Shown: one piece after another, positions 4,160 through 64,000 of the stretch
How the letters are laid out: every line of letters starts with the position of its first letter
Position numbering within the stretch: position 1 is the first letter of the stretch
From: Acidobacteriota bacterium
GTDB lineage: Bacteria > Acidobacteriota > UBA6911
Assembly (NCBI GenBank): GCA_963664705.1
Contig: OY761556.1
Coordinates: 3,488,001-3,552,000 of the forward strand
Length of the DNA stretch: 64,000 nt
Reading direction: 5' to 3'
Notes under the pieces: generated by a model
Told to the model about the DNA's origin: nothing
What the model saw: only the letters and a program-made list of their open reading frames with translations
Database searches by the model: none
Position numbers and translations under genes: made by a program

Positions 4160-4415
4160 ACTTGCTCCTTCAGAAGATTTTGCCGTAAAAGCCAAGAGCC
4201 TAGTGCGTTCTTGTCCATATTTCAACCATTTGCAGTCAGAAGACGCCATTGCCCAGGCGATTTGTGGAATTTTTCGCCCGGGGGCATGGGAGCCGGCTAC
4301 AGATTTCCAAATGAATCTCTTGATCGCAAGATCGAATTGCCTATAAATAATAAAGGAGGGTTCCCTCCCAGAATTCTCCGTGATATTGTTTTTGCATCCC
4401 TCCTGGAAAAAGACT

Positions 4416-20556: not shown

Positions 20557-21040
20557 TGCATTTCCTTTCCAGGTAATGTCACATGGGAAGCCTGCGCAAC
20601 ATCGAAGAAGTGTAAAATTGGCAAGCAAAATCCGGAAGACGTCCTATAATCGCAGTATCAGCGAAACCTATTCAATACCCGTTCATTACGCAAACAACTC
20701 GTACTAAAGCTATTCTGCACAAACGTTTTATGCTGACATACCCGGCTCCGGCAGTCAACGGATTTGCAGAACCGGAGCATAGTCGGAACAGATGGTCAAC
20801 CCGAAGCGTCGAAATCTGAAATCCGAATCCGCGATATAGATACATACATATATACCTATCCGGCATAAAAGGAAGCATTGTCGGGCTGCGGGCTATGGAA
20901 CACACATTCACCAAGTTTTTTCGCTGGCTCAATGAGTTCGGATCATGTATTGATTATGGTTCTCTTGCAGGGGAATACGCGGGCACAAGATCCTCCGCAG
21001 GGCTTTGTTTAGGGAAAACTGAGTCAAAGGAAGATTGGAA

Positions 21041-36943: not shown

Positions 36944-38629
36944 CTATCTCCACTTATCGATCTGGACGGATTGGCTTGGCACCATGCCGCCCATGCTGAA
37001 GTAGTTGTTGTTCGATCCGCCCGTAACGACTACGGTGAAGGTTCCGCCGGCGTAGCGCTGTCCGCTGTTGGGTGGCGGCGGGTTGGGATTGGATCCGGCT
37101 TTGACATAATCCGTAAATTTTTCGACGGAGTCATACCCGGCATCCTTCACAAAATTGGCGATTGGAGGACTCAGAACCGCAAACGTTCCAAACAGCGAAC
37201 CATCCTGCGAGTTGTAAATATCTTTGATGATCTTGGGGTAGTTCATCTGTGTGCCCCAAACGTTGTCGGCCCAGTTCTTGGCAGAGAGGACGCCCCAACC
37301 GTTGAACAGAGTAATGATATTTTCATTCTTCTTGAAGCCGCGTCTGACGGAGAGCGGCTGAAATGGAGAATCCCGTTCATTTTCGGCAATGATGATGTTG
37401 ATCAGATTCATGGGATTTCCGACGGTCCCCATATAGGTCGTCCCTACCTTGCCGCAGTTCCCGCCGTTGATGGAAAGCAGGTTCCAGGCTCGTCCAATGG
37501 TTGTATTGGCATGGGCGTAGGGCCCCATGGCACCGATTTCATAGTTCAATCCGATCTCATCGCGAATTGAACCATTAATGACCGCACCGGATACAAAGCC
37601 GTTATCCGAAACGGAAATGCCTTCCATTCCGGTAGAGCCGATCGCGAGAATAATCGGGAAATATTCCGGCGCCGCCCCTGCCATCACCGCGTTGACGGCA
37701 GCATCTTTGACCGTATAGGTCCAAGTCTCGAAGACGCCAGCAGTCGGCCCCATCTTCCCAAGCACTTCGTCAGGGCGATGACTGGTCGCCTTCAGCATCT
37801 CATTGACCTTTTCCTCCGTCGGCATGACTACAGGCAGAAAGTCGGTATATCGCTTCTGAAGAAACACTTTCTGCAGTTCGTCAGCCGTGCCACTGAATGT
37901 GGCGGGTCCCTTGTCGCGAACCATCTGCCCGGATTTCTGATCTTCCGCGGATAGCGGTTTGGTGAGTTTGTCGACAATTTCCTGCATCACCGGCTTGCCG
38001 GTGAGCGGGTTGTTCCCCAGAACAACATCGCGGCGCAACTGTTCACGCGTCTTTCCCCAAATTGGGCCGCGGATATATTGGATGCGCATGCCCGGCATCC
38101 CCGCAGTTAAGGCAACTTCCTTTAATTGCTTATCAAAACTTGAAACCACGATGGGAACGGCGGGCTTTTTAATGGTGGATTCGAAGTCGATCGAAAGCCT
38201 GGTGACCCCAGGCGCACACACGCTTCAATGCCCGAGGGCGATGACCATGGCATCGGCCTTCTGTTTCATCTCGGCCCACAGCGCGGGATCCGGCTGAGCC
38301 ATGAATGTGGCTTTTTTCACATAATGGAAATTTGTTTTCGGATAAGCTTCTTTGAATCCTTTTTCAAATTCAAAGAGCAGATTATCCGATCCGGGATATC
38401 CGTCATCAACCAGATAGATAGTCTTGCCATCCATGGTATTCAGGCGAGGCGCCATCGGCTTCAATTCCAGCGGAGGTGGCGTGCCCAAGGGGTTGAGCAC
38501 CGTAATAACGGATTCTGCAGACTTCTTTGCCGCAGTCTTCACCTGAGCCTGGCCGCTCAAAATCGAGTAACTGCAAAACAGGCACAGGCACAGTACTGCA
38601 ATGAAAAACACAGTCGTATGCCGCTTCAT
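36944..38629 (-). CDS. Exported UGSC-like selenoprotein paralog A (~561 aa, Sec at UGA 38227-38225, motif H-U-S-V-C)
   Basis: ORFs 38629-38225 and 38221-36944 are in frame, joined by 'ALGH-TGA-AGC GTG TGT GCG CCT' = U-S-V-C-A-P. Hairpin GCCUGG-GGUCA-CCAGGC (38213-38197) starts 11 nt after the UGA. Signal peptide MKRHTTVFFIAVLCLCLFC. Confidence 0.85.
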
Positions 38630-45533: not shown

Positions 45534-48500
45534 TTAGTTTAGGTTCGTTCCATGACAATGCTCCCTTAGCTTGTCATCCCAATAGCCACTTGCATCAAGC
45601 GTATTCTCATCCAATGATTTCTGCGGATTACTAACCCATCCCAATACTGAGGCGATAGCAATATCTCCACTATTTAAGCCAATATGAATGCCCTCGTGTA
45701 AAACTGTTGCCCCCATTTCAACTGACAAGAAAACCGCGGGATCAAAAGCCGGTTTCCAGAGATCAATGGTCCACGTGTCCAGATTTGCAGTGGCCGTGGC
45801 ATTTTCTTGCCATTTATGATGGAATTGGTTAGGGTGTGAGACAATATTATAATCAAATTGCTGGAAGTCTGAAAAACGCTGATTTGCGTAGTACTCTCCC
45901 TGATATTTGTATATCGAATTGAAAAGTCCCATAACAAAGGACCCACAATCAGAGCTGATGTCACTAACCCATGATTTTGCGATCGATTCACCTGAATCAA
46001 CGAGTGTTTTCACAGGATCGGCCGGAATCGCTGGGATCTGTATTACTGGCTGAGGCGGTTGCATGCTATAAGCAAAGGCATACCAGTACAGTGCACTTCG
46101 TGCCATGAAATCGCTAAAATCAACTGGAGGGTTGTATTCGCTGGAACCAAGCCATCCAAGCGGGTTCCAAAACTTTCCATCCGCATCAACCCTATTTAGA
46201 GGATCATTTCTGACGTACGCGTACTTGTTCAGCGACTGCGGGTCGTAGATGTGCGCCGTCAAAGGATCCGGCGAGGTCCATCGCATTAGCGAGGTATTGT
46301 AGTACCTGGCACCGAAGTCCTTCAGACCTGTCTCCTCATCCACCTTGTGGCCGGGATATTGATCCGAGCCGCCGGAACCAAATGCCCTGGAATAAAAGCC
46401 GCTATCAACGATCTGGCTTCCGATTGTAACAACCTCCTCCTGCCGGTGATTCCTTCCCGGCCATTTGAGATTATCCACCACCGTGTAGCCAAAGCTGTTG
46501 TTCGTATAGCCCCTGGTGCGCCGCGCAACAAGCGCCGAGTTCATATAGATATTGTTCGTATATGTATTTTCATACGTCTGCCACGACGCGCTCTCCACCT
46601 TGTATTCGGCAAGGATTTCATTCCCGTTCCCATAAACATACGAATAGCTAACCGAGCGCTGTTCCCCATAATAATAATAGTTCCAGCTCTTTTTCACCCT
46701 GCGGCCCAGCGCATCGTACCGGTACGCTCCCAGCAACGCGCTATCCGACGTGCGATTCACTTGCCTGATCAGGCTGTTGGCATTGTAAAGGTACGAATTG
46801 GCTGCATCCTGAAGCTGGTTGCCCGACTGATCATAGTAAGATGCATACGCTGCAAGCCGGTTGTTCTGGTCATTGGCGGTCCCACTCACGTTCCCGTACC
46901 TGTCATAGCTCCAGTTGCTGCTCCACTCTGTTCCGTTCGCCGACTGCAGAGTTTCCGCCGACAACCGCCCCAATCGATCGTACCCATACGTCGACCATTT
47001 CGATTCCAGGCTATTGCCGTAAGCATCTTTTTTCGTGTAGTCGACCCGAGAGATCCGGTTGGATAGCGTGTACGAATAATTCAGGTCATATTCGTGGGGA
47101 GTCCCCCACATGCTATTCGGAACCGTTATCCGGATGATCGAAAGCCTCCCATAACTATCCGTAACATGTTCTTCCGAGCTGGTTCCGTAAGAAATCAGCG
47201 AAACCGATCCATCCACCAGCGCGTAGTCGACATCCGTGACATAGGTTCGGCTTGTCCCGGAAATGACAGTATCCACTATTCCCGTCGCTCGTCCGATTGG
47301 ATCGCGCGTGTATGTGATCTCATTGCCGTCAGGATAGGTCATACTTTGTAGATCCTTCTTCGAGCATCCGCAGCCAGCCGGCGTGTAGCTATAGTTTACA
47401 GGATAATTTGTGGAGTCCATACGCATGATCTGCTGCGTCACCCGGCCTCCCTGGTCGTAGCTCCAGCTATAACCGACACTCTCTCCCGTAATCTGAAGAC
47501 TGCTGTTGACCGTCCAGGCGCTCGTCATTCGCCCCTGCCCGTTTGTTATCAGACCTATCAGACTCGAACTCGATTCATCGTAACTCATCAGTGACCATGG
47601 AGTGCCGTCCGAATAGGACGTAACCAGCAACCGGTTCAGAGCATCATAGCTGTAGCCCGTGACGACACCCCGGGCATCCGTCTTCTGCGTCACGTTCCCG
47701 TTATCATCATAGACAAACGTTACCGTTCCGCTCTCGGGATTGGTTTCCGCTATCTTTCTGCCCAGGCTGTTGTATCCATAGGTCCTCACTTGAACCCCCT
47801 GCAGGATTTGTATCAGCCGGCCCGGAATATCATAGGAATATACGGTCTCAGGTCCCCAGTTCCCGTTGGAATCCTCCTCGATCACCTTTAGAATCTGCCC
47901 GGACTCATTGTGTTCCGTCCTTTTTCTTCGTCCCTCCTGATCGGTCGCTGTGGTTACGTTTCCCACATATTGATACGTTATCTGGCCGCCCGTTGCCGGG
48001 CTTATGCTGGTAATCCTGCCCAGCACATCATAGCTGTAGGTCGTAAACGCCGCCGTGCCCCCACGGCTGGGCAGCCACTTCTTCGTGGCCCGGCCATGAG
48101 CATCGTAGTCCGCTTTTTCATAAATGCTGTTTTCCGACGGGATCTCCTTCTGCGTTTTGATCGTGTTGCCCGAAGGATTGCTGTCAAAATAGGAATAACC
48201 CGATGAGTTGTTGGTGGTTACTTGGTAATCCTGATCATCATAAGAAAAATACGAATTTCCGGTCGGCGCCGATTGATTTACTTTTCTATTGAGCCCGTCA
48301 TAGGCATTGGTAACCTGGGCGCCGTTGGGGTCCGTCGTCGAATACAGATTCCCGGTCCACGCCGTACCAAGAAAACTCTCCCACTGGTACTGCGTCGTGT
48401 GATTCAGCGCATCGGTCGACGAGGCCGGATAGGGACCGACGGTATAGGAAATCGTGGACTGGCTGCCTTTGGGATCAACCTTCCTCACCACATTGCCAGC

Positions 48501-50291
48501 GATATCATATTGGGCATGAGACATAATCCATCGGGACTGCTCCTTGTACAGCGCTCCCGCACTGGTCGCGTTTCCCCGCGTCAAATATGCCGTCCAGTAT
48601 CCGGAATTGTGATTAACCGGATTATAGGCCATCGCCACTAAAGGATAAGCGCCATATTCGTCATAGGCGGTCTGTGTCCGGGTCAGCTCGACATTACCTG
48701 CGTTTCTTGTCGATACGGCCGACACCAGGTTGGTCAATCCCTGCGCAACATATTCCGGATGCGTCTCGTGCCAGTACTCCATTGCCGTTCTTCGAAGCAC
48801 CGAACCGCTGAACCCGGTTTCGACGGTTTCCTTCACATTGCCGGTCCCGTCGGCGGCGTAGGTCGTTGCCGTTTGCGTCGTTTTCCCATCGTCCAGCGTG
48901 GTTGTGGCAGACGTAATTCGCGGGTTCAGAACAAAAGTCTTCAGCGTATCGTCCTGACTCCAGGAATAACTCTGGGTTCTCAAAACAGTCTGCCCGTTAT
49001 AGGTTTTCCGCGTGACCGAGGTCGGCATGCCGTCAGACCAATTTGCTCCCGATGAGGTGTAGTTCAGGTTATAAATGGTTCGCCCGTCGATATCCGCCGC
49101 TACCTCAACAGAAGAGGGGTTGGATTTCGTCTGGTCAACGCTGTAGCTGATGGACCAGGTGGTGCTGGTTGTCGTCCCATTATTGTTAACGTACTCCGTC
49201 TTCTGAGACACCATTCTCTGGGGACGCCAGTTTGGAGTGCCGCCATCATAGATGCTGTTTGTTCCATAAGAATAGGCGACCCTGTCCCGGCTCGAGGTGG
49301 ATATCAGCGTCCATTGATAGGTATTATAATCATAGCCATACTCGCTGACGGAGTCGGTCACGACGGCCAGCTCGCCAAACTGATTGTACTGAAACACTTG
49401 TCCGAGACGTGTATTGCTCAAGCCTCCGCCATTAATTCCCGCCATCCATATCGAACTCAACACCTTTTCATTGGGGCCCGGGCTCTGAACCGTATAAGGA
49501 GACGGGAAGGACGGCGAAAGCGACGGTGTCGCGTATTGAAAATTAATCCATATGGGATAGCTCGCATGCATCACCCGGATGCTGCTGAGAAATCCATCCC
49601 CGCCATAGAAGAAAGTCATCTGCGGCACAGCCGTGTAAGGGTAGGTCGTTGTGTCGTATGAATTTCCCAGGCTGTCGTCAATCGAGGCCAGTTTCCCGGT
49701 GCCGGGCACATAGGTTGCAAATATCTGGTTTCCGTTTCGATCCCGAACTTCCGTTGCGTAGGAATTGGCCCCCACGGTATTTCCAAAAAACAGCTTTGTG
49801 CCTCCGACCATCGTCGCCACATTCGGATTGCCCGGCGTCAGCCGTATATAGGTGGAATCGACAGACCTCCAGTCGCCGCGTCCATAATCGGCTATCTCGT
49901 GCGAACTGCCGTCTGACATGACAAGTGTATAGCTGGATCTCCCTTGGACAAGGTATGGAAAGCCAAGCCGCCACCCCAATCCCACGGAACTTCCCAGTTC
50001 GGACAACCCCATCAGCGTGGTGCCGGTTCGCGTCCAGATCTTGCTGTTATAGGCCAATGACAGGGACAGATTCAAGCCGGCTCTGCCCGGTCGCGTCGGC
50101 AACGGCCTGCTGAAAACAATATTTCCGTTCACCAGGTTGATTTGTCCAAGTCCGCCCAGATAGGGAACAAATGAATACATCCCCTGCGCATTCATGCAGT
50201 CATAGGTTAATTCGGTTTCAATAAATGCGGTTCTTGTCGCGATGGGAAAAGTCAGGAATGCAATCAGAATGAGTAGGATTCGTTTTGTCAT
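45534..50291 (-). CDS. RHS/YD-repeat polymorphic toxin with signal peptide and C-terminal HExxH domain
   Basis: YD repeats (YDALNRL, YDALGRR), core 'DEETGLKDFGARYY...RWTSPDP...PQSLNKYAYVRNDPLNRVDADG', C-terminal 'TVLHEGIH'. Confidence 0.93.
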   Translation of the reverse strand: MTKRILLILIAFLTFPIATRTAFIETELTYDCMNAQGMYSFVPYLGGLGQINLVNGNIVFSRPLPTRPGRAGLNLSLSLAYNSKIWTRTGTTLMGLSELGSSVGLGWRLGFPYLVQGRSSYTLVMSDGSSHEIADYGRGDWRSVDSTYIRLTPGNPNVATMVGGTKLFFGNTVGANSYATEVRDRNGNQIFATYVPGTGKLASIDDSLGNSYDTTTYPYTAVPQMTFFYGGDGFLSSIRVMHASYPIWINFQYATPSLSPSFPSPYTVQSPGPNEKVLSSIWMAGINGGGLSNTRLGQVFQYNQFGELAVVTDSVSEYGYDYNTYQWTLISTSSRDRVAYSYGTNSIYDGGTPNWRPQRMVSQKTEYVNNNGTTTSTTWSISYSVDQTKSNPSSVEVAADIDGRTIYNLNYTSSGANWSDGMPTSVTRKTYNGQTVLRTQSYSWSQDDTLKTFVLNPRITSATTTLDDGKTTQTATTYAADGTGNVKETVETGFSGSVLRRTAMEYWHETHPEYVAQGLTNLVSAVSTRNAGNVELTRTQTAYDEYGAYPLVAMAYNPVNHNSGYWTAYLTRGNATSAGALYKEQSRWIMSHAQYDIAGNVVRKVDPKGSQSTISYTVGPYPASSTDALNHTTQYQWESFLGTAWTGNLYSTTDPNGAQVTNAYDGLNRKVNQSAPTGNSYFSYDDQDYQVTTNNSSGYSYFDSNPSGNTIKTQKEIPSENSIYEKADYDAHGRATKKWLPSRGGTAAFTTYSYDVLGRITSISPATGGQITYQYVGNVTTATDQEGRRKRTEHNESGQILKVIEEDSNGNWGPETVYSYDIPGRLIQILQGVQVRTYGYNSLGRKIAETNPESGTVTFVYDDNGNVTQKTDARGVVTGYSYDALNRLLVTSYSDGTPWSLMSYDESSSSLIGLITNGQGRMTSAWTVNSSLQITGESVGYSWSYDQGGRVTQQIMRMDSTNYPVNYSYTPAGCGCSKKDLQSMTYPDGNEITYTRDPIGRATGIVDTVISGTSRTYVTDVDYALVDGSVSLISYGTSSEEHVTDSYGRLSIIRITVPNSMWGTPHEYDLNYSYTLSNRISRVDYTKKDAYGNSLESKWSTYGYDRLGRLSAETLQSANGTEWSSNWSYDRYGNVSGTANDQNNRLAAYASYYDQSGNQLQDAANSYLYNANSLIRQVNRTSDSALLGAYRYDALGRRVKKSWNYYYYGEQRSVSYSYVYGNGNEILAEYKVESASWQTYENTYTNNIYMNSALVARRTRGYTNNSFGYTVVDNLKWPGRNHRQEEVVTIGSQIVDSGFYSRAFGSGGSDQYPGHKVDEETGLKDFGARYYNTSLMRWTSPDPLTAHIYDPQSLNKYAYVRNDPLNRVDADGKFWNPLGWLGSSEYNPPVDFSDFMARSALYWYAFAYSMQPPQPVIQIPAIPADPVKTLVDSGESIAKSWVSDISSDCGSFVMGLFNSIYKYQGEYYANQRFSDFQQFDYNIVSHPNQFHHKWQENATATANLDTWTIDLWKPAFDPAVFLSVEMGATVLHEGIHIGLNSGDIAIASVLGWVSNPQKSLDENTLDASGYWDDKLREHCHGTNLN

Positions 50292-51413: not shown

Positions 51414-52952
51414 TTACGACTGCCAGTAGGTGCGGTCGAGCGTGCGGTATTGGATAGCCTCGGAGACATGGCGGGCAAGAATCTTGTCCATGCCGTCCAG
51501 GTCGGCCATGGTCCTGGAGACGCGCAGAATGCGGTCATACGCGCGCGCGGATAAACCAAGCTTTGTGATGGCATTCTCCATCTGTTTTTCCGACTCGGCA
51601 TCCAGCTTGCAAAAACGACGGATCGTGCGCGCTGTCATCTGGGCGTTGCAGTAGATGCCAAAAGCCTCCAGTCGTTTGCACTGAGCATTCCGCGCGGCCA
51701 GGATGCGTCCACGAATTACCGTGGACTCCTCACATTTATCATCCTGCGCCAATTCCTTGTATTTGACGGCCGGCACCTGGATATGTAAATCGATTCTGTC
51801 GAGCAAAGGCCCGGACACTCTTGCCAGGTATCGCTGAATCAGCGGCGGCGTGCAGGTGCAGTCGTGCTGCGTATCGCCAAAATACCCGCACTGGCAGGGA
51901 TTCATCGCGGCAGCCAGCATGAACCGCGCGGGAAACGTCAGGGACATTGCGGCTCTTGAAATTGTGACCTCCCCGTCCTCCAGCGGCTGTCGCAGCACAT
52001 CCAGGACATGGCGATGAAACTCCGGAAGCTCGTCGAGAAAAAGCACGCCGTTATGCGCCAGGCTTACCTCTCCGGGCCGTGGCATTGTGCCGCCGCCGAT
52101 GAGGCCGGCATCGGAAATGGTATGATGCGGAGCGCGAAAGGGGCGCATGGCAATCAGCCCGGCCTGATTGGAAAGCAGCCCGGCTACAGAATGTATTTTG
52201 GTCGTTTCAATCGCCTCATCAAAAGACATCGGTGGAAGAATTGTCGGTAGCCGACGCGCCAGCATTGTTTTTCCCGAGCCTGGGGGCCCGATCAAAATAA
52301 TATTGTGCCCGCCAGCCACCGCGACCTCCATCGCGCGCTTGGCCTGGTATTGCCCCTTCACGTCTCTGAAATCGACATCGTAATGGCTGTGTTGCGCAAG
52401 AAGCTGTTCTCGATCCACCGCCAGCGGGATCCAGGGCTGTTTGCCATTGAGCAAATCGACCACCTGGGCCAGCGACCGCACGGGAAATGTGCGTACGCCA
52501 TCTACCACCGCGGCCTCGCGTGCATTGGCTTCCGGCACAATCAGGTGTTGCAGTCCCTTTTCTCGGGCCATCGATGCCATGGACAGGGTGCCTTTGACCG
52601 GCCGGATCGATCCATCCAAAGACAGTTCACCCATGAACAGGTAAGCCGACAGATTCTGCATCCGGACACACCCGGATGCCCCCAGGATCCCTACTGCCAT
52701 GGGAAGATCAAACCCGGACCCTTCTTTTTTCAGATCCGCCGGGGCAAGGTTGATCGTTATCCGCTGGGCAGGAAGAACAAATCCGCAATTCCGGAGAGCC
52801 GCTCGTACGCGCTCACTGCTCTCACGAACCGCAGTATCGGGAAGCCCGACCGTCATAAAATCCAGCTTTTGCCCGGAACTGAGGTCCACCTCCACTGAGA
52901 TTGGATATGCCTTGATGCCAAAGACAGCCGCTGATTGGACTCGAAACAACAT
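51414..52952 (-). CDS. comM: YifB/ComM Mg-chelatase-like AAA+ ATPase (intact)
   Basis: '[11 protein letters not shown]', '[20 protein letters not shown]', GPPGSGKT, 'RAPHHT', 'LFLDELPEF', 'AAMNPCQCG', 'SGPLLDRID'. Confidence 0.96.
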
Positions 52953-53098
52953 GGGCCTGATACTCCTTTCGTATATCCAATGGCTTCCTGTCATTTTGAG
53001 CGAAAATATTTTGCTAATTTGCTCAACCCTGCCACTAGAAGAAGGATCCTTATGCGGGAACTGGTATAATCAGGCTTTATTCAATAAGGGGCGTTCTC

Positions 53099-54736
53099 AT
53101 CCACAAGATAGACGGCAATACTCTAGGAATTAAGCAATCGCAGCGCGGCGCTCTCGAGCGCGTCTTCCGGCGGCGTGTCGCGCCTGACCAGGTCGTTTCG
53201 CCGGAGCTGGCCAAATACTTGTCCGCTCTTTCCAGGGAACTTGGCCGCCAGGTCGGCGTTTTTTTGTCCAGAGACGGTATGATTCGAAATGTGATCCTCG
53301 GGGATGCCACGCACCTTGAGCTGCCAGACATCGGCCGGCTTCGGGGCGGCACCGGAAGGTTTCGCGGACTCCGTCTTGTCCATACACACCTGCGCGGCGA
53401 GCCGGTTACGCAGGATGATCTGAACGATCTCACCCTTTTGCGCCTGGATCTGATCGCCGTTATCCACGCCACGAACGAGGGGGACGCGGGCAGGATCGAA
53501 CTGGCGCACATTCTTCCGATCACGGATGGCGATCTGAAATCGGAACCCTTCCGAAAGATCGAAGCTCGCGACATCTACCATCTGAAGTTTGATTTCGAAG
53601 AGGAAATCCGGGCGCTCGAAAGCGAGTTCTCGCGCACCACGGAACACAGCGCTGAGGAGACACTCCATGAACGGGCCCTGGTCTTGTGTATCACTCCAGG
53701 CGAAGCGGCCCGATCAGAGGTAACCGAACTCGTCCGGGCTGCAGGGGTTGAGATTGCGGAAGTCATGACCTTCGCGGGAGGCCAGATCCACCCGCGTACG
53801 GTTGTCGGCCAGGGTCGACTCCAGCGCATAGCCCTGGCCGCAATGCGGCGCGGCGCGGATGTAGCCATTTTCGATATCGACCTGAAGCCCAACCAGGCGC
53901 GCGCCTTCGAAGATACCACGGGATTGAAAGCCGTCGACCGCACGCAGTTGATCCTCGACATCTTTGCACAGCGCGCGCGCAGCCGTGACGGTAAGCTTCA
54001 GGTGGAACTGGCGCAATTGAAGTATTCGCTTCCCCGGCTGACCGAGGAAGATGCCGGGCTGTCGCGACTGGTCGGAGGAATCGGGGGCCGCGGCCCTGGA
54101 GAAACGGTTCTGGAAATAGGACGACGGCGCGCACGCAGCCGGATTCGTCACCTTGAAAAAGAAATCCAGCAGTTATCCAAACAGCGCAGCGTGCGCCGGC
54201 ACCGGCGCAATCGCCAGGGCCTGCCAGTGCTTTCGATTATCGGTTACACGAACGCGGGAAAAAGCACGCTGCTCAATGCCCTGACGGAAAGCGAGATCGA
54301 CACCGCCGACCAGATGTTCGTTACGCTGGATCCCACCTCGCGACGATTGCGTTTCCCGAAGCAGGGAGACGTGATCATCACCGATACGGTCGGATTTATT
54401 CGCGATCTGCCCCCGGATCTTGTGACCGCATTCCGCGCTACCCTCGAGGAATTGTCCGATGCGGACCTGCTGCTCCATGTCGTGGACGCTTCGGATCCGG
54501 GCCTTGAGAGAAAGATGGATGCGGTAAATCGCGTCCTGAACGACCTGGAGCTCCACACGGTTCCGCGCCTGGTTGTCATGAACAAATCCGACCGGGTTGA
54601 GCCGGCGGTCATGGACGGGATTTGCCGGCGCTATGAAGCGGTTGCGGTCAGCGCGCTTAAACGACAGGGGTTGAGCGCCCTGATTCAGACAGCCGAAAAA
54701 CGGATCCGTCACCAACCGCTGTCCCCGGGGGCGTAA
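53099..54736 (+). CDS. hflX: Ribosome-splitting GTPase HflX, long form; proposed non-AUG start
   Basis: 'DRTQLILDIFAQRA', 'GRGPGE', GYTNAGKS, 'TLDPT', DTVG, NKSD. A homolog-like N-terminus 'IHKIDGNTLGIKQSQ..ALERVFRRR' lies upstream of the ORF-track start at 53219. Confidence 0.93.
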   Translation: MHKIDGNTLGIKQSQRGALERVFRRRVAPDQVVSPELAKYLSALSRELGRQVGVFLSRDGMIRNVILGDATHLELPDIGRLRGGTGRFRGLRLVHTHLRGEPVTQDDLNDLTLLRLDLIAVIHATNEGDAGRIELAHILPITDGDLKSEPFRKIEARDIYHLKFDFEEEIRALESEFSRTTEHSAEETLHERALVLCITPGEAARSEVTELVRAAGVEIAEVMTFAGGQIHPRTVVGQGRLQRIALAAMRRGADVAIFDIDLKPNQARAFEDTTGLKAVDRTQLILDIFAQRARSRDGKLQVELAQLKYSLPRLTEEDAGLSRLVGGIGGRGPGETVLEIGRRRARSRIRHLEKEIQQLSKQRSVRRHRRNRQGLPVLSIIGYTNAGKSTLLNALTESEIDTADQMFVTLDPTSRRLRFPKQGDVIITDTVGFIRDLPPDLVTAFRATLEELSDADLLLHVVDASDPGLERKMDAVNRVLNDLELHTVPRLVVMNKSDRVEPAVMDGICRRYEAVAVSALKRQGLSALIQTAEKRIRHQPLSPGA

Positions 54737-54945
54737 AGGGCCAATCACAGCTCCCGCTTGAAGAACGATCCCGGCTCGCTGTCTTCCTATGTCTCCCTGC
54801 CACTGGGTAAATCTGGGATCACAAATGCTTTAGCGCTTGTGCCCTAACCTTTGATTGTGCTAAAAACAGCAAAAATATTAGGAGTCATGTTGTACAGTGG
54901 GGATCCACTGTAATACCCGATCTATAGCATCGGAAGGGAAGGAAA

Positions 54946-56688
54946 ATGAAAAATAGGCAACTCTTAGCATGCATTGCTGTCGTGATCATGGCAGCAGTGG
55001 CATTTGCCGGCTTTGCACCCGTGCAGGCACAGCAAAAGGCCACCGCCAAGCCCAAGATTACGGTGCTGAATCCCGCTATCGAAAGCAAGATGGCGGATCG
55101 CATACCACTTTCTCCTCGCCTGGACACGCTCGAGGGGAAGACACTGTACCTGGTCGATATCAACTGGGGCGGCCCCGAGGCAGCCTACAGCGTGTTTGAG
55201 GAAATGCAGGCCTGGTTTGCTCAAAACATGCCCAGTGTGAAAATCATCATCAAACGAAAAGCCGGATCGTACACCACAGACGATAAGCCGCTGTGGGCGG
55301 AGATCAAAAAGAATGGAAATGCCGCTTTGATCGGCATATCGGGTTGAGATGGCTGCACGTCGGCCGTGAGCCAACATTGCAGAAGTCTCGAGTTGATGGG
55401 CATTCCGACCTCAGGCGCAGCTGCTGCCAATATCGTGAGGTATGCGGTCGGGTATGATTTTGAATATACAAACGGCATGCCGATTCGCTATGTCGGATTC
55501 CCGTTCCCGGTAGCCGGACAGCCGAAGGCTGTTCACCACAAGTATGTTTTTGAAAGCAAAGATGTATTGACCGGCAAGCCGATGATGCAGGCCATCATCG
55601 ACAATCTTACAAAGCCGCTGACTGATAAGGAAAAGATCGCGGGAAAGCCTCCTGAAGCCAAAGTTGAGCCACGGCTTCTGCCTCCCGGTAACGAGGATGA
55701 ACTGCAGCAAGTCTTCAAGGATAATGATTGGACCGACTATAATCCCATCATTCTTCCGACTGAAGAACGAGTCGCTGCAATGCTGAAGGGAACCAGCCGA
55801 AAACCCACCGATAAAGTAAAAGAACTGAATTGGCCGGGCGGAAAGCGGAACCTCACAGTCGAAAAGGTTGCGGTCTGCGCCGTGATGGCGGGTGCAAAAC
55901 CGGAACACTTCCCCCTAATCCTGGCCCTGGCAACCGCACTTCCGTTCGGAAATTCGACAAGCTCCATGGCAAACATGATTCTTGTCAACGGTCCGATACG
56001 GAACCAGGTAAAGATGAACTACGGGCTGAACACCATGGGACCGCACAATGAAGTGAACGCGGTTCTGGGAAGATCCTTCACGTTGATGTCGAAAACCGCC
56101 GGAAATCTGCACTCCGGAAAAACGACGTTCAGCGGTCTGGGAAGCAACCTGCAATACAACAATGTGTGCTTCGCGGAAAACGAAGAAGCGCTGCCCGCAG
56201 GATGGAATCCTGTCCACGTACAGATGGGCAACAAGCCGACCGACAGCACTGTGACAGTGGCGACCGGCTGGTCCTATATCTCGAGCGTGGGTGAAGTGCA
56301 AAGAGGATATCCTCCACAGTTCCTGATGCGTGATTACATGCGATCGCTGTCCGGCATGGGCGGCACGGTAATCATGGATCCGTCCGTGGCAGCCCTGATG
56401 AAGGATGCCCAGGGATTCAATAGCAAAGAAGACCTGTCCAAGTGGCTTGCTCAGAATATCGAGAAGACCGTATCGTCCTATTGGGGCAATGGCGTGATCT
56501 CGACGATGTTTGCAACCATGGCGATTCAGGGACTCGAACCCTATGCATCCCAGAAGAAGATGCCCCCCGACACACTGATCAAGCCCTTCCAAAGGGTTGG
56601 AGTGGTTGTAGCGGGTGGCGGGCAGACCACCTGGTTTGTGACCGATTTTGGTCTCGGCCGGGGTGAACTGGTCGATAACTGGAAGTAG
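54946..56688 (+). CDS. Exported UGSC-like selenoprotein paralog B (~580 aa, Sec at UGA 55345-55347, motif G-U-D-G-C)
   Basis: ORFs 54946-55347 and 55366-56688 are in frame, joined by 'IGISG-TGA-GAT GGC TGC ACG' = U-D-G-C-T. Imperfect hairpin at 55353-55382 with loop CGUGA; signal peptide. Confidence 0.85.
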
Positions 56689-56718
56689 TCGACAGTCGAT
56701 AATCGGCAGTCGGCGGGG

Positions 56719-56766
56719 AAGGCCGCAGAACGGCATCGGGAATCCCGATTCAGTTCTGCGGCCTTT
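56719..56766 (+). terminator. Hairpin/terminator after paralog B
   Basis: AAGGCCGCAGAAC ... GTTCTGCGGCCTTT inverted repeat. Confidence 0.6.
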
Positions 56767-56942
56767 CTGTTGTCGCAAGACTCTAACTTCATAAAAAACA
56801 ATTATTTAGAGTCTGTGTTTCCGCAAGGCCACAAAACGCATGTTTTGCCTGGCCCGCAGCAGTTTTAATGAAATTCCCTCACCCCTGGGACGTAGTTACC
56901 CTATGGTGGCATCAATTTAACTAAAACACGGAGGAATCACGC

Positions 56943-58682
56943 ATGAAGTTGCGTACCGCAGTAATTGCAATTTTGTGCCTGGGTCTTTGTCTCAGTTTCT
57001 CTGCACTGAGCATTCAGACCTATGCGCAAGGAAAGAAGGCAGCTCCGGCTGGTAAACCGGTGGCCGTGGCCAAGATTACGGTACTCAGTCCGATGGGTAC
57101 ACCGCCCCCGATTACCCTCAAGAACCAGGCACCGCGCCTGGATACGCTTGACGGCAAAACCATTTATCTGGTGAACACGGGATTTGTCGGAACTGAACGC
57201 CTGATGGAAGTCATGACGGAGTGGTTCAAGGAAAATCATCCCAAAACCACCATCGTCAACAAAAGAAATCCTTCAATGGATCAGCCCAATAAACAGCTGT
57301 GGGCTGAGCTCAATGAGAAGGCTGACGGCGTCATCATCGGGCTGGGTCATTGAAGTGTTTGCGCGCCTGGGGCGGTTCGCCTCAGCATTGACATCGAATC
57401 CAACTTCAAGAAACCCTCAATCCCTCTCATCCTGTCTGATTTCGCCAAACAGGAAGCCGAAGTCGCTCTTACCAGCGGTATGCCTGGCCTCCGCATTCAA
57501 TATTTCCGTGGCCCGGTTTGGGGCAAAACCAACGAACAGCTCAAGAAACAGATTATTGAAGGCCTCAATCCGGTAACAGGAAAACCGGTGATGCCAGAAA
57601 TCATCGAAAAACTCACCAAACCTCTGACCGCCGAGGAAAAGAAGACCGGGGATATCAAGGTGGATAAAGGCCCGGCCACTTTCACCGGCACGCCGGATGA
57701 ACTCCAGAAGCTGTTCCTTGACAAACGAATGACCGATTTCATGCCCATCATTCTTCCGACCGAAGAGAAGGTTGAAGAAATGCTGAAGGGCACCAGCCAC
57801 CGTCCGGACGAGCTTCTTGGCAAAATGAACCCGGGCTCCGAAGCTGGTGACGTTTGGACCTATACGGTCAAAGATGCCGCCGTTAACGCCGTTATGGCCG
57901 GTGCCAAACCGGAATACTTCCCGGTTATCCTGGCACTCGGTTCGACTGGTTCGCCGAGCGTCAATGTGTCCGATAACGGCTTCATGGCCGGTGCCGTCGT
58001 AAACGGCCCCATCCGTGACGAAATCAAACTCAATTACGAAATCGGCGCCGTGGGTCCCTATGCCCAGGCGAATACGACGATCGGAAGAGCCTGGAACCTG
58101 CTGTCCATCAATGGCGGGAACTGCGGCAAAGTCGGGACGACCTACATGGGCACCGTAGGAAATGCCCACAACTATGTCAGCCCTATCATTGCCGAAAACG
58201 AACGCGATTCTCCATTCAAGCCGCTGGCCGTACGCCGCGGATTCAAGGAGAATGAGAATATCGTCACCCTGTTCATGGGCTGGGGTATTCTTTCCGCGAA
58301 AAACTGGAAAGCCGATGTTTGGGGATCCAACATGAATTATCCCCAGATCATCAAAGACATTTTCAACCAGCAGGATCCCATGTTCGGGACGATCGCCGTC
58401 CTGAGTCCGCCTATTGCCAATTTCGTGAAAGATGCCGGCTATGATACAGCCGAAAAATTCACGGAATGGGTAACGGCGCCTGTGAATCCCCCTGCAGCTC
58501 CGGCTGGCGCTCCTGCCGGCGGGCCTGCCGGTCGCGGCCCCGGTGGACCTGGCGGACGCGGCGGCATGGGCATGATGGGCGGCGCATTCAGCGTCGTCGT
58601 CACTGGCGGCACCAACAACAACTACTGGATGATGGGCGGCATGAGGCCTGGTCAGTCCATTCAGATTGATAAATGGCGGTAG
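56943..58682 (+). CDS. Exported UGSC-like selenoprotein paralog C (~579 aa, Sec at UGA 57351-57353, motif H-U-S-V-C)
   Basis: ORFs 56943-57353 and 57480-58682 are in frame with 42 sense codons between them, homologous to paralog A (SVCAPGAVRLSIDIES). Hairpin CUGGGGCG-GUU-CGCCUCAG at 57367-57385; signal peptide. Confidence 0.87.
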
Positions 58683-58729
58683 TCAGTAGCCAGTAGCCAG
58701 TAATCAGTAGGCAGTAGGCAGTAGGCAGT
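58681..58729. repeat. Heptamer tandem repeat (CAGTAGG/CAGTAGC type)
   Basis: AGTCAGTAGCCAGTAGCCAGTAATCAGTAGGCAGTAGGCAGTAGGCAGT. ATTCCAG-type heptamer runs also occur at about 1832-1869, 31521-31547 and 40581-40623. Confidence 0.8.
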
Positions 58730-58730
58730 G

Positions 58731-58768
58731 AAAAACGGCAGCGGGTATCGTCACCTGCTGCCGTTTTT
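58731..58768 (+). terminator. Rho-independent terminator after paralog C
   Basis: AAAAACGGCAGCGGGT-atcgtc-ACCTGCTGCCGTTTTT. Confidence 0.8.
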
Positions 58769-58779
58769 ATTTTGTCGCG

Positions 58780-59128
58780 ACAAGTCAGGCAACGGAGCCC
58801 ATTGGAGTACCGGCGTCTCGCCCAATGCCATGGCATTTTTCCTTCGCCCCTTCAGCATGGGGCCGGTCGTTATGGCCAAAACATTGGTGACACTGACCGA
58901 CAGTGATCCCGTTTTAGGAGACTATTACTTATCTCAACGTCCGGACCAACCTCCTGCCATTGAAAGGAAAACTGCATGCAGGAGAAAAAATACACCGGGA
59001 AACAAAGTAATAACAAACGCAAAAGTACGGGAGTGGTTAACCACACTCCCGTGCTAAACCCAAATGCTGCCGGCATTGACATTCATCCCACAAAGATCTT
59101 TATTGCCGTGCCTCAAGGTAGAGATGAC
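58780..59128 (+). mobile_element. Truncated IS110-family element: upstream non-coding end plus about 50 N-terminal codons of the transposase
   Basis: ORF from 58976 reads '...PVLNPNAAGIDIHPTKIFIAVPQGRD', resembling the first DEDD-nuclease strand (AAGIDI...VAVP..RD) of IS110 transposases, then loses similarity. The left boundary is approximate. Confidence 0.65.
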
Positions 59129-59316
59129 AAGCTGATAAGCTTGCACGAATACTATGGCACCTTGTTTCCTTCAATGTACCCTATGATTCCTCGGTGTTTT
59201 TTGACGCGGCACAAAAGTATAAACAACGCTATAAGAAGAACCTTATAAAACGAATTGAATCTATGGGCTATCGTGTATCCCAAGATCCAGCCGACCCAGC
59301 GTTAGCACCCGCAGTT

Positions 59317-59533
59317 CCTTAGGAGGGCTTTTGGAGCTGCGGATATACCCCCCGGGCTCGCAAGCTCGCCCGGGGCTGCTATCTTTCGCACCTCGCGCTG
59401 GATCTTTGTTCCAATTGTTCGGAGCGCTGTGACCCGAACGAAGCAACAGGCCCGGAGGGCCGAAAGCAAGTAGCCAGGGGTGAGCGCAGCGAACCCCTGG
59501 TAGAATAGCGAAAAAATTGGAGCCCTCCTAAGG
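59317..59533. repeat. Inverted pair of REP-like palindromic elements
   Basis: CCTTAGGAGGGCT (59317-59329) / AGCCCTCCTAAGG (59521-59533) enclose two internal hairpins: CCCCGGGCTCGCAAGCTCGCCCGGGG and CCAGGGGTGAGCGCAGCGAACCCCTGG. Confidence 0.7.
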
Positions 59534-59673
59534 CGCTCGATGCAAATCGGGAATCATAACTATATTTGTTCCAAGTATTTAACTAAACAGAGAAAAAGCA
59601 AAAAATAAATCGAGTTCCCTTGATGTTTGGAACACCACCGGTGGGCGGGCTGCTGAAGGGGCGAAAGAAGGCA

Positions 59674-60116
<443 letters not shown>

Positions 60117-60120
60117 CAAC

Positions 60121-60153
60121 AAAAAAAGCCAGCAGTAATAACTGCTGGCTTTT
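60121..60153 (-). terminator. Rho-independent terminator of the TonB-dependent receptor gene (intron insertion site)
   Basis: AAAAGCCAGCAGT-aata-ACTGCTGGCTTTT with a U7 tract on the minus strand. Confidence 0.88.
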
Positions 60154-60177
60154 CTGCTTTCAGAGGTTGGCTAGATC

Positions 60178-63100
60178 TTAGAACAGCAGCTTCAATCCCA
60201 TCCGCATTGTTCGACTGCCGCCGCTGATCTGCGTGAAGTTCAAAAATAGTCCGGCTCCGGTTCCGTTAACCGTCTTGGTGACAGATCCGGGACTATCGAA
60301 ATTCTCATGATTCAGCAGGTTGAAAATTTCCGCCCTGTATTCCAGTCTGACCTTTTCGGTAAACCGGAAAGTCTTCAGGGCATTCAGATTGACGCTGGAA
60401 TAACCGGAAGTATACACGCTGTTTCTCCCAGCCGTGTTTGCTCCGGGTACGCTGTATGAAGTAACGGCAATCCAACGCACCTGATCGGAGGTCGTGCAAC
60501 CATAGCCGTTCGATGCACTGGCTGTGACATTCAGATCCCGCAACCCCGAAGGGCAGGCGGAAGCCGATGCAGCCCCAACCGGAACGGTAACGGCGCGAGT
60601 GTCCACGGGAGCATTCGGATTTCCTACATCCGGACGCAGTGCGGTCGCATCCGCTCCCCCTTCATACATTCGGTCAAATCCATTGAGAACAGTGTAAGGA
60701 ACTCCCGAACGGAAGGTAAGGGTACTGGCGGTACTCCACCCACCCAGAATTTGTCCCAGGATTCCGCTCTTGGGTCCGCGAATATCCCACATCAAAGATG
60801 TCGACCACATATGACGTCGATCGTTATCCGATGGCCCGTAGTCGATGTTGCCGCTCAGCCCCATACGCTCAACCAGGATGGGAGAGATGGACGCATTCTG
60901 CGGGGAACCGTTCGTAGCAAAGGTCTCGGTCCCGGTATCCATATTCCGTGACCAGGTATAGTTACTGTCGAAAGACAGTCCACCCACCGGAGTATTGCTG
61001 AACCTGCGGCGAATACCCAGCTGCATGGAGTTGTAATTGCCATTCACGAACGAAGCACGGATCTGGCGAGCACCGATGGTTGAGACTATGCGGGAACCGA
61101 ATCCGTTCAGAGCCGCATTGGGCAAATAGGGATTCATCGCAACGGTCCTGAATTGCTTCCGTGTAACCGAACCCACATAGGCAATATCAAGTACCGTCTT
61201 CCCCAAAATCTCCCGTTGAATGCCCAGTGACCAGCGCTGCGTATACGGATTGCGAATATTCGCGTCAAACTGTGACGAAGCACTGGACAGATCGTCGACC
61301 GCAGTCGGAACCAGGGATGGCAGAACAGCCGAAAGGTTGCTTAGCCCTCTAGGTGTTGCCGCCGTCGACGAGGATGGAACGGGAACATTGGCCAAGGCGT
61401 TGGGTGAACCGGCCGCCATGTTTGAGAGAAGGTTGTTGTACCAGGTATCATAGGTAAGCTGATACCCGCCACGAACCACCAGCTTGCCTTTGCCAAAAAG
61501 CTTGGCAAGCAGTTTGTTTGCAAGCCAGCCACTCTTCGGATCCGGATTCCAGGCAAACCCGAAACTGGGCCCGAAATTGTTATTATCCGGATTTACCTTG
61601 GTCGAGGTTGTAATGGCGCCTGGCGTGTTGCCTGTATAGGCCGGATATTTGAAGCTATTGGCGGGCTGCCCGAAATTCTCGTAGCGAATTCCGTAATTCA
61701 ATGTGAGATGCTGCGTGACCTTCCATCCATCCTGGGCAAACAGAGTCCAACGGAACAGATTCGGATAGTAGATTCCGCTGCCAAATGTTATCGACACAGG
61801 ACCGCTGGATGTGCCGGCGTAATCGTCAATCCAGTTTGCCATGCTTGTCACACCGCCAGGCACCAGGGTGCTGCTGGAGGTGGAGAAGTAGGAAGCTGTG
61901 CCACGATAGTTGAAGGGCGCCTGCTGTCTTGCCAGCTGGCGCAGAATATCTCCACCGAAGCGGATGGAATGAGTCCCCCTGATTGTGGTGGCCGTATCCT
62001 GGTATTGATAGGAGTTTGAAACTCGCCCCTGCGGATACGTGCTGCTGACTCCAATGGAAGATAATCCGGTCAGGCTTATCTGCGGCAGCGTATTGCCTAC
62101 GGATTCGGGATTTGCCAGGGGATATCCCAAATTCACCCTCTGGAAGTTGAATCGGACTTCATTCGTTGTGTGATTCGAAATCATGTAGGTATGGTTCACG
62201 GCCACACCAAAGCTCTTTTCCGAATAGAGAGTACTGAAATCCGGCGTGAAGCCGATGGAATCCGGAGAATTCGTCGTTCGGTTGTAGAGCCATCGAACCA
62301 TGAAATACTGCTTATTGGAGATCTGGTGGTCAAACCGGATCTGATGATTGTTATTGAGATAGACGGTCGGCGCAAACAAGGTTGCAATAGCGGTTTCCAC
62401 GGTCTGCCCCGTGCGGGCTCCGCCGCTGCAGGAAGTCGAAGCCAGGCTGGCCGGCAAGGCAATGCTGTACGCGGACGCACTGTTGGCCGGATTGCCACGC
62501 AAACTACCCAGGAAGCCAAGATAGGACGCCACATTGGCACAGGTGGTCGCCAATGGTTTCAATACCTGGTACCCAGCCTCGGTGGGCACGCGGTAGCTTG
62601 CCTGGGTTCCGCCATCCGAATAACGGTCCCACTGACCAGCAACGAAAATGAAGGTCTTGTCTTTTCCATTGTAAATGTGGGGAATGACGACAGGAGAACC
62701 AAAGGTGAAAGCCGGGATATTCTCCTTGAATACCGGCTTGAGCGGATTGCCGCTGCCGGGAACATATGCAAGCCGCTGAGTGCGAGTGGATGCATTCAAA
62801 CGCTGCGATCGGTAAACCCAGGCCAAAGTACCGGCAGGGTTGTTGGTTCCCGACTTGATAATCTGATTGATGACGGCGCCGCCAGCGCGTCCGAATTCAG
62901 CGCTGAAATTGGAGGTTTGAATGGCCACTTCCTGCAACGCATCATTGTTGGTCAGGATCAGGCCCGGTCCGGCAACCGAAATATCGTTATTTTCCACGCC
63001 ATCGATCATGTAGTTGTTTGAACGGGCGCGGGCACCGTTTACCGATCCCACACCGCCGCCAACACCTGTCTGGTTAGTCGTAACGCCGGGGAGCAGCAGG

Positions 63101-63573
63101 ATCAGGTTCGTGGAATCCTGTCCACTGATCGGCAGCTGTGCCAGGGATCGCTCGGTGATATTTGTCCCGCGTTTCTCTTCATTCAGCTGGACCTCTGCAG
63201 CCTCGCCCTTTACCGTAACGGTTACATTCTCAGTCGCCACGGCCAAAACTGGATCAACGGCCGCCGTCTGGTTGGCGGAAACCTTGATCTGTTTAACCAC
63301 AAATGTGCTGAAGCCCGTCATCTTGACGGTCAAATCATAATTTCCTAAATCCACGGCGTCGAAACGAAAGATTCCAACCTCGTTGGTAACTTCCGACCGG
63401 GTGGAATTGGTTTCCGTCCGGGTCAGCTCTACCGTGGCTCCAGCGACAACGCCACCCTGCTGATCCGTGACCACGCCTAAGACGGTTCCACGGCTTGTTT
63501 GTGCGTAGCTATTGCCCAGTAAACTAAGCAACAGTACACACACAAACAAGAAGATAGCCCTTTTCCCAATCAT
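60178..63573 (-). CDS. Oar-like TonB-dependent outer-membrane receptor with N-terminal carboxypeptidase-regulatory-like domain
   Basis: Signal peptide; 'GVVTDQQGGVVAGATV', 'VNGARARSNNYMIDG', 'TSNFSAEFGRAGG', 'FAQDGWKVT..LTLNYGIRYE', C-terminal 'RAEIFNLLNH...RTMRMGLKLLF'. Confidence 0.93.
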   Translation of the reverse strand: MIGKRAIFLFVCVLLLSLLGNSYAQTSRGTVLGVVTDQQGGVVAGATVELTRTETNSTRSEVTNEVGIFRFDAVDLGNYDLTVKMTGFSTFVVKQIKVSANQTAAVDPVLAVATENVTVTVKGEAAEVQLNEEKRGTNITERSLAQLPISGQDSTNLILLLPGVTTNQTGVGGGVGSVNGARARSNNYMIDGVENNDISVAGPGLILTNNDALQEVAIQTSNFSAEFGRAGGAVINQIIKSGTNNPAGTLAWVYRSQRLNASTRTQRLAYVPGSGNPLKPVFKENIPAFTFGSPVVIPHIYNGKDKTFIFVAGQWDRYSDGGTQASYRVPTEAGYQVLKPLATTCANVASYLGFLGSLRGNPANSASAYSIALPASLASTSCSGGARTGQTVETAIATLFAPTVYLNNNHQIRFDHQISNKQYFMVRWLYNRTTNSPDSIGFTPDFSTLYSEKSFGVAVNHTYMISNHTTNEVRFNFQRVNLGYPLANPESVGNTLPQISLTGLSSIGVSSTYPQGRVSNSYQYQDTATTIRGTHSIRFGGDILRQLARQQAPFNYRGTASYFSTSSSTLVPGGVTSMANWIDDYAGTSSGPVSITFGSGIYYPNLFRWTLFAQDGWKVTQHLTLNYGIRYENFGQPANSFKYPAYTGNTPGAITTSTKVNPDNNNFGPSFGFAWNPDPKSGWLANKLLAKLFGKGKLVVRGGYQLTYDTWYNNLLSNMAAGSPNALANVPVPSSSTAATPRGLSNLSAVLPSLVPTAVDDLSSASSQFDANIRNPYTQRWSLGIQREILGKTVLDIAYVGSVTRKQFRTVAMNPYLPNAALNGFGSRIVSTIGARQIRASFVNGNYNSMQLGIRRRFSNTPVGGLSFDSNYTWSRNMDTGTETFATNGSPQNASISPILVERMGLSGNIDYGPSDNDRRHMWSTSLMWDIRGPKSGILGQILGGWSTASTLTFRSGVPYTVLNGFDRMYEGGADATALRPDVGNPNAPVDTRAVTVPVGAASASACPSGLRDLNVTASASNGYGCTTSDQVRWIAVTSYSVPGANTAGRNSVYTSGYSSVNLNALKTFRFTEKVRLEYRAEIFNLLNHENFDSPGSVTKTVNGTGAGLFLNFTQISGGSRTMRMGLKLLF

Positions 63574-64000
63574 GCCTCACTTCTCCTTGAAGTAATTGCT
63601 ACTGCATTCAACCACACATTCCCTTACCCGAGGCGCTTGACAACAGAATACGCTGCAAAAAAAATCTCGCTGAATCCCCAGGCGCGCAAAAGGGTTCAAT
63701 ATTTCTATAACTTAAACCAAAAATCAATGAATAATTGGCGAAGGATCTTGGCTATATCCAGCGAAAACAATTCACTAAAACAATGCATACAAATACTTTA
63801 TATGTATTTCCACAGATTATTTCGCATATAAAACCAAGTCATTGTATTGATACATTTACTAATGCATTTACACTATTTTGAATAAAAACGACCTGGAGTC
63901 TTGAGGCGGGACAGACAAAAAAAGTCGGCAGCAGGTTTTGCGACCTACTGCCGACTGAGGACAAAACGACCGGCACCTGACGACGGAGTTACCGCCAGTT

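Follow-up and report, generated by a model that had tools for sequence, protein, structure and literature searches.

Genes of an expanded, probably exported selenoprotein family with a sequence link to the selenocysteine domain of proline and glycine reductase

In this work, we analysed a stretch of 64,000 nucleotides (the window) from an Acidobacteriota bacterium of the UBA6911 lineage (assembly GCA_963664705.1, contig OY761556.1, positions 3,488,001 to 3,552,000), with a focus on two adjacent genes, B and C, that are interrupted by an in-frame TGA. Both genuinely encode selenoproteins and belong to UGSC, a known family with no assigned function, in which a selenocysteine (Sec) domain is joined to a large C-terminal domain (C-domain). 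What is new here is the probable export of the products, a 10–40-fold expansion in two lineages, a link of the Sec domain to that of PrdB and GrdB, the Sec subunits of proline and glycine reductase, and co-expansion with AOR, the tungsten-dependent aldehyde:ferredoxin oxidoreductase. Because the genome carries 31 copies with a UGA and their Sec domain resembles that of proline and glycine reductase, it is likely that these anaerobes run a large, undescribed set of selenium-dependent reductases.

Gene B (54946..56688, forward strand) encodes 580 aa in read-through translation, laid out as a signal-like peptide (residues ~1–28), a UGSC domain (~40–225) and a C-domain (~240–580), and its in-frame TGA (55345..55347, forward strand) corresponds to Sec134 in the context G-U-D-G-C. 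Its paralogue, gene C (56943..58682, forward strand; 579 aa), has a Shine–Dalgarno-like site of its own, a TGA at 57351..57353 (forward strand; Sec137, H-U-S-V-C) and a Gly/Pro-rich insert close to the C-terminus. Each read-through frame contains one TGA only, and in the alignment of the two proteins (35% identity over 512 aa) both TGAs fall in one column. The initial annotation had recognized two read-through genes hidden by the open reading frame (ORF) caller, with UGA at an equivalent position; this description is correct, at about 580 aa, one UGA and one U-x-x-C motif per gene. Under translation table 11, gene B is broken into ORFs of 133 and 440 aa and gene C into ORFs of 136 and 400 aa. 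Shine–Dalgarno-like sequences are present at the true starts of both genes, and none was found at any of the three downstream candidate starts inspected, which speaks against the separate initiation of the downstream ORFs that the initial annotation had considered. Short-read contigs from runs X1, X2 and X4 (one sample, possibly the source) are identical across both TGAs, and those of X5, a second study, also match the first TGA, that of gene B. Chance and sequencing error are excluded as explanations for the TGAs, because the column is kept in paralogues, in the loci of relatives and in short reads.

The UGA of both genes is almost certainly read as selenocysteine, a judgement that draws together the Sec machinery, the conservation of the codon in paralogues and metagenome loci, and a modest signal of a selenocysteine insertion sequence (SECIS). 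The genome (G000; 6.89 Mb, one contig, 98% complete) has all of selA, selB, selC and selD, each in two copies, the tRNA-Sec genes being full length and the selA, selB and selD matches exceeding their cut-offs. A tblastn search locates 35 scattered paralogues, and the Pfam UGSC entry PF24696 also gives 35 matches; TGA occupies the Sec column in 31 of the 35, every one reading U-x-x-C, with the second Cys kept in 31/31. The codon is likewise conserved in 20/20 homologous loci examined from other genomes (20 out of 22 loci). Across the 63 metagenome loci that cover the Sec column, 47 carry TGA, 9 TGC or TGT and 7 another codon. Six of the nine Cys codons lie in the Sec column itself, and three are displaced by one residue; the former are true Cys homologues with TGC in the column (L157–L161 and L184), of the kind that the initial annotation had proposed to look for.

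The SECIS signal is clearer for the family than for single genes. A putative upper hairpin in gene B (55357..55375, forward strand; z −1.77, 9/200 shuffles) is on its own no better than synonymous resampling (p 0.53), and positions 55357–55374 are invariant, third codon positions included, in 15 of the 20 homologous loci examined. The corresponding putative hairpin of gene C (57365..57386, forward strand) reaches p 0.01 against synonymous resampling, and the whole 56-nt stretch is ordinary against dinucleotide shuffles (103/200). Taken singly, 6 of the 31 genes outperform synonymous resampling (p ≤ 0.05); in the pooled family stem, whose register was picked after inspection, 0.55 of cells are paired versus 0.43 expected (synonymous resampling, 1/2000).

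Two observations weigh against the reductase mechanism proposed below. Four of the 35 paralogues have no UGA, three of them reading L, N and S there, and both Cys and Sec are missing from the column in 22 of 31 full-length database homologues without a stop, a sample that is biased because Sec forms are split in databases. The four UGA-less paralogues (G000:C1:444274-446028, 2728377-2732179 and 5837927-5839597) constitute natural non-selenium controls; one of them sits on the same strand after a twin-arginine Fe–S gene and an AOR gene, and two are divergent neighbours adjoining two related genes of ~347 aa. That UGA is instead a true stop or another residue, the halves being separate proteins, is scarcely credible. 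Short stand-alone UGSC frames of ~180–250 aa do exist in other organisms, and the single-gene hairpin signal (6/31) is modest, but the UGA falls within the PF24696 domain at a Cys-aligned position, the Cys homologues have uninterrupted frames, the Sec machinery is complete, the downstream starts have no Shine–Dalgarno-like sites and stem pairing across the family exceeds synonymous resampling (0.55 versus 0.43). Decoding by a UGA-reading tRNA-Cys was considered and rejected, all three tRNA-Cys carrying GCA anticodons. The genome also contains a 72-nt 'SeC' tRNA-like element (G000:C1:1625651-1625722, reverse strand) whose triplet is UCA and whose acceptor stem is broken; it lacks a CCA end and is probably a pseudogene.

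Genes B and C score 41.1 and 67.3 bits with PF24696 (gathering cut-off 25), and all 35/35 matches in the genome lie above that cut-off and in fusion genes. The NCBIfam equivalog NF041046 gives 27.3 and 39.9 bits, below its curated cut-off of 125, so that by these scores the two genes form a divergent UGSC branch and are not NF041046 equivalogs. Thus the initial annotation was right to see a UGSC-like module fused to a large C-terminal domain, and wrong to take it for an undescribed system. A UGSC protein fused to a domain named Unknown_1 was published in 2008 by Zhang and Gladyshev (PMC2398784, Fig. S1A), and the segment of Unknown_1 printed in that figure matches gene B at residues ~309–358 in a by-eye comparison, which places the architecture already in print. 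No Unknown_1 profile was present among the profile libraries scanned. The available text of both a 2007 paper (PMC1976440) and a 2026 review (PMC13188914) describes the UGSC family as function-less; within the literature searched, mostly non-subscription and in part seen as excerpts, we found no report of the expansion, the export signal or the PrdB link. Among database proteins, P0193, P0195, P0241, P0250 and P0251 have two Unknown_1 domains and no UGSC domain, and P0208, P0224 and P0248 are long, look secreted and combine two Unknown_1 domains with a UGSC domain that reads C-G-C-G-L-C.

The expansion spans the genus and is seen again in a second phylum. Each of the 18 same-genus genomes searched has 9–44 matches, nearly all of which, among those listed, contain one TGA. 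The two sister genera have 2 and 0 matches, 2 of 12 genomes of other families have 1–2, and in a draw from across the phylum 12 of 150 other genomes match, with at least 1–2 each (up to 11 candidates per genome were scored). In the second phylum, 30 of 121 genomes in the class of G276 (titled Desulfatiglans) match, and 16 of these have 5–23 copies, all counts in that class being lower bounds. A family of roughly 30 members per genome of the genus has been hidden because gene callers split these genes. The accessible portion of a study of the UBA6911 family (10.1101/2021.04.09.439258) presents its members as versatile heterotrophs using proteins and amino acids, and the string 'seleno' does not occur in that portion. 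A duplicated Sec machinery serving the expansion was rejected as an explanation, as two selA genes occur in 3 of 18 genus mates and the expansion in all 18.

At least 41 selenoprotein genes were found in the genome by a non-exhaustive search: 31 UGSC genes, SelD and 9 of known type, the last from 20 tested out of 104 filtered candidates and with only PDO passing a curated cut-off. One family thus supplies roughly three quarters of these selenoproteins (31 of at least 41). Published selenoproteomes reach 46 (PMC12013277) and 57 and 63 (PMC13188914) in the parts of these sources available, and a record selenoproteome is not supported by the count of at least 41 here.

The genome contains a compact second Sec set (L072, G000:C1:3072623-3078482) consisting of selB, selA, a long selD with a C-terminal extension and tRNA-Sec. 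It adjoins an arsenite-methyltransferase-like selenoprotein whose read-through end abuts the tRNA-Sec, and the two SelB proteins of the genome share only 34% identity; the set is possibly an acquired island. By their motifs, its neighbours resemble a corrinoid protein and uroporphyrinogen-decarboxylase-like methyltransferases. Elsewhere, a CPA2-family cation:proton antiporter gene (L110, G000:C1:6396412, reverse strand) is interrupted midway by a single in-frame TGA, which may be a nonsense mutation or an unrecorded recoding.

A sequence relationship between the UGSC Sec domain and that of PrdB/GrdB is shown by profile comparison. HHalign of a UGSC profile (58 UGSC-domain rows, A2) with a GrdB/PrdB-like profile (30 genes read through UGA) gives a probability of 94.6% and an E-value of 7e-8 over 99 columns, with U and C in register, and 86.4% when the U and C columns are masked. 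Controls range from 0.04 to 7.7%: 0.5% for thioredoxin and 7.7% for PDO, both with shallow profiles, 1.2% for a receiver domain and no more than 1.3% in 15 column shuffles. The comparison with the thioredoxin-like proteins of the genome is thus at background level. No match to PF07355 (GRDB) was found in the 35 members of A1 or in the 98% complete genome, and the same search gives matches in 32 of 251 genomes of the phylum; PF09338, the GrdE/PrdA partner, likewise has no match in the genome. The available text on proline reductase (PMC11229817) reports that the PrdB Sec attacks a substrate bound on the partner subunit PrdA, and that a PrdB U-to-C variant is inactive, Cys being unable to substitute. 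UGSC fusions likely work in a manner analogous to selenoprotein B but outside that family, given the lack of PF07355 and PF09338 matches and of a C-domain match to the single GrdE sequence tested. This last point also counts against the analogy: the C-domain shows no similarity to that GrdE sequence (0.7%, a weak test), which leaves the pyruvoyl half of the analogy unsupported.

The AlphaFold2 model of the mature gene B protein (predicted local distance difference test score, pLDDT, 95.5; predicted template modelling score 0.93) has an N-domain of five β–α units, in which Sec sits where strand 3 ends and a helix begins. This domain aligns over its whole length with flavodoxin/Rossmann-like domains (Z 8–10.6, 110–145 residues, root-mean-square deviation (rmsd) ~2.5–4.2 Å); the top row is a chain of the MCR activation complex (Z 10.6), tied with generic domains, and periplasmic binding-protein domains occur among the matches, again tied with generic flavodoxin-like folds. 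The Sec domain is thus predicted to be flavodoxin-like rather than thioredoxin-like, and the whole-length alignment argues against the thioredoxin fold put forward by both the initial annotation and the 2008 paper. The annotation's comparison stands for the U-x-x-C motif and probably fails for the fold, in view of the flavodoxin/Rossmann and PrdB/GrdB matches. No thioredoxin-fold chain appears among the best 50 rows for the full gene B model, which excludes nothing.

The C-domain, modelled alone with a pLDDT of 95.6, has no clear solved match (the top VIA alignment reaches Z 5.6 across 85 residues), although this is no proof of a new fold. Foldseek returned no match with E at or below 0.001 for either model, and a PDB sequence search nothing below E 0.048. 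The top Foldseek rows for the C-domain, class I fumarate hydratases at E 5e-3 (rmsd 17) and Toblerone-fold hydrolases at E 0.3, were rejected as weak. The conserved polar residues of the C-domain include D264, T272, S337, S340, N371, R376 and E411, with no invariant Cys or His among the conserved C-domain residues. The products of genes B and C are probably exported, as the initial annotation had proposed: by a crude hydropathy heuristic, a basic start and a hydrophobic core are found in B, C and 29 of 35 paralogues (one doubtful), and one paralogue not flagged by the rule carries a twin-arginine motif.

UGSC copy number tracks tungsten AOR in both lineages. All 19 genus genomes have 8–25 AOR matches, two sister genera have 3 and 1, and 13/13 genomes of other families have 0. 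In the class of G276, the median AOR count is 17 in the 16 genomes with 5–23 UGSC copies versus 7.5 in the other 34 tested. The size-corrected rank correlation between UGSC and AOR is 0.75 in that class (n = 50) and 0.66 in the genus (n = 19), with 0.35 and 0.11, respectively, for a control of molybdenum (Mo) hydroxylases. Furthermore, an AOR gene lies within 6 kb of 7 of the 35 paralogues versus 1.7 expected (1000 rotations, p 0.004), and some paralogues are directly downstream of AOR or Mo-hydroxylase genes on the same strand. The 108 neighbouring ORFs are mixed, with AOR, Mo-hydroxylases, esterases, TonB-type receptors and MFS transporters. The genome as a whole has 24 AOR and 22 Mo-hydroxylase matches, an unusual load of tungsten and molybdenum enzymes for Acidobacteriota.

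This association has caveats that weaken it as evidence for a shared pathway. The class correlation covers 50 of 121 genomes, the 71 without a UGSC match being left out, and the neighbour families were chosen after being seen. TonB-type receptors (12/35 versus 2.9) and MFS transporters (6 versus 1.3) score equally near the paralogues, Mo-hydroxylases are likewise expanded in the genus (6–27), and no UGSC–AOR trend exists among the 16 high-copy genomes (rho 0.09). A detectable upstream Fe–S partner with a twin-arginine signal accompanies only 4 of 23 AOR genes, and at the metagenome loci AOR is present in only 4 of 80, with SDR in 18 of 80 (36 of the 80 are at least 6 kb). The AOR link is correlative and, because kin are not independent, amounts to perhaps two lineage events.

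Taking these lines together, we tentatively propose that the UGSC fusions are single-chain periplasmic reductases with a Sec nucleophile, forming an electron-accepting branch of anaerobic catabolism. Substrate, catalysis and partner roles are here inferred by analogy. A small organic substrate would be held and activated on the C-domain, and the Sec would attack it to cleave a carbon–heteroatom bond; the Cys three residues past the Sec would free the product by forming a selenenyl-sulfide, and a reductant in the periplasm would then reset it. Different substrates would fall to the many paralogues, which would act as an electron-accepting branch beside the co-expanded AOR in a Stickland-like pairing, and the products of genes B and C would act independently.

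A somewhat doubtful alternative, in line with what the initial annotation and the 2008 paper assume, is a periplasmic thiol/selenol-disulfide oxidoreductase or peroxidase that would act on proteins or oxidants, with the C-domain selecting the client. The U-x-x-C at a helix start and the exchange of Sec and Cys among homologues would suit this, as would the suggestion of a Trx-like fold and a redox role for a UGSC protein in the available text of PMC2398784, but the whole-domain flavodoxin/Rossmann-like alignment and a sequence link to PrdB/GrdB rather than thioredoxin argue otherwise, and thirty-odd paralogues at a median identity of 32% would fit substrate diversity better than redox upkeep. 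We consider a role in periplasmic binding or scavenging unlikely; the cargo would be organic solutes, metals or Se, S, W or Mo species, the Sec would be a ligand and not a nucleophile, and TonB-type receptors, transporters and molybdo- or tungsto-enzymes would be the partners. A TonB-type receptor gene within 6 kb of 12/35 paralogues and an MFS gene near 6, the paralogues that sit immediately 3′ of AOR or Mo-hydroxylase genes in the same orientation, the binding-protein domains among the structural matches and the many homologues with neither Cys nor Sec all point that way; however, generic flavodoxin-like folds score level with the binding-protein matches, 31/31 Sec paralogues retain U-x-x-C and the kinship is to a catalytic subunit.

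The arrangement of the two genes bears on a further idea, that B and C are two subunits of one dedicated heteromeric enzyme, which we regard as improbable. The genes are neighbours on one strand, several relatives (L014, L021, L022, L025, L031, L032 and L034) have a B orthologue close to C-type genes, and the five database proteins with two C-domains per chain (P0193 and the others listed above) hint that this domain can pair. Yet in those relatives the 3′ ends of the B orthologue and the C-type genes point towards each other, and B does not lie upstream, a convergent, non-operonic arrangement; a strong hairpin and a separate Shine–Dalgarno-like site stand between B and C; and for most of the 35 paralogues, the two closest genes on each side include no other family member. 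The B/C neighbourhood is inherited, and the tandem order is local. The nearest paralogues lie elsewhere in the genome (60–64% identity for gene B, 62–77% for gene C). Nor is the pair isolated: a third paralogue (36944..38629, reverse strand; 561 aa, U-S-V-C, TGA at 38225–38227) is 67% identical to gene C, and the 3′ end of a fourth (63989..64000, reverse strand) enters the window, the gene extending past it (genome 3551989–3553668, U-S-Q-C). The special tandem pair, the self-contained system and the B+C complex of the initial annotation are therefore unsupported, even as the paralogue count it called for came to 35, 31 of them with UGA.

Returning to the proposed Sec-nucleophile reductases, their widest form, in which UGSC/Unknown_1 makes up a third branch of glycine/proline-reductase selenium chemistry, with a catalytic domain whose fold is unsolved, present in 10–40 substrate-specific copies as the electron-accepting partner of an equally amplified AOR set in two unrelated anaerobic lineages, is speculative and rather doubtful. 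If true, it would represent an unrecognized metabolism of the Stickland type, and no other single selenoprotein family in bacteria may have expanded as far. The question is testable, with a soluble single chain, natural Cys forms, a confident model, PrdB as an analogue and a co-expanded candidate pathway at hand.

The surroundings of the two genes contain several further features. The 254-nt gap between B and C holds an inverted repeat (56713..56768, no strand assigned; −46.7 kcal/mol, z −6.2, 0/200 shuffles as strong), a possible terminator or stabilizing hairpin that the terminator scan did not flag. That scan placed a terminator-like hairpin 3′ of gene C (58731..58768, forward strand). Directly past the gene C stop lies an imperfect 7-nt tandem repeat (58680–58730), a pattern with 8 occurrences in the genome that draws unrelated short-read contigs. 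Downstream of gene C is a TonB-type receptor gene (60178–63573). The short ORF fragments between the two (58976–60138) resemble, by their motifs, decayed pieces of transposase and group II intron reverse transcriptase; they have no Pfam match at 1e-5 and no Rfam match, and Rfam likewise gave no match across 52000–64000 of the window. A 1585-aa RHS-repeat protein (45534–50291, reverse strand) has a signal-like N-terminus and an unannotated C-terminal tip. The window also contains ordinary genes, namely CstA (2081–4423), an XdhC-family Mo-cofactor chaperone (21035–22129), a radical SAM/BATS protein (32660–34066), YifB (51414–52994) and HflX (53219–54736).

Three known systems come closest to these proteins. 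With thioredoxin-fold U-x-x-C selenoproteins they share the placement of the motif, at the start of a helix preceded by a strand, and they differ in their five predicted β–α units, their flavodoxin/Rossmann-like alignment and their background profile scores. With the published UGSC/Unknown_1 fusion they share the UGSC domain, U-x-x-C and function-less status, and, by eye against the figure available, A-V-x-x-V-M-A-G-x-x-P-E ... N-G-P in the C-domain; unlike it, they have the motifs U-D-G-C and U-S-V-C, a signal-like N-terminus and the fusion in all 35 copies, with Ala in place of the Cys of the 'AGC' motif highlighted in that 2008 figure, and they number about 30 per genome versus 1–2 in the published UGSC family.

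Prd and Grd are cytoplasmic. Unlike PrdB and GrdB, the proteins described here have no PF07355 match, are a single chain, are probably exported and have a partner domain that is not detectably GrdE-like in the comparison with one GrdE sequence. Like them, they show profile similarity around U-x-x-C, the next helix and two strands, and tie a Sec module to a larger partner.

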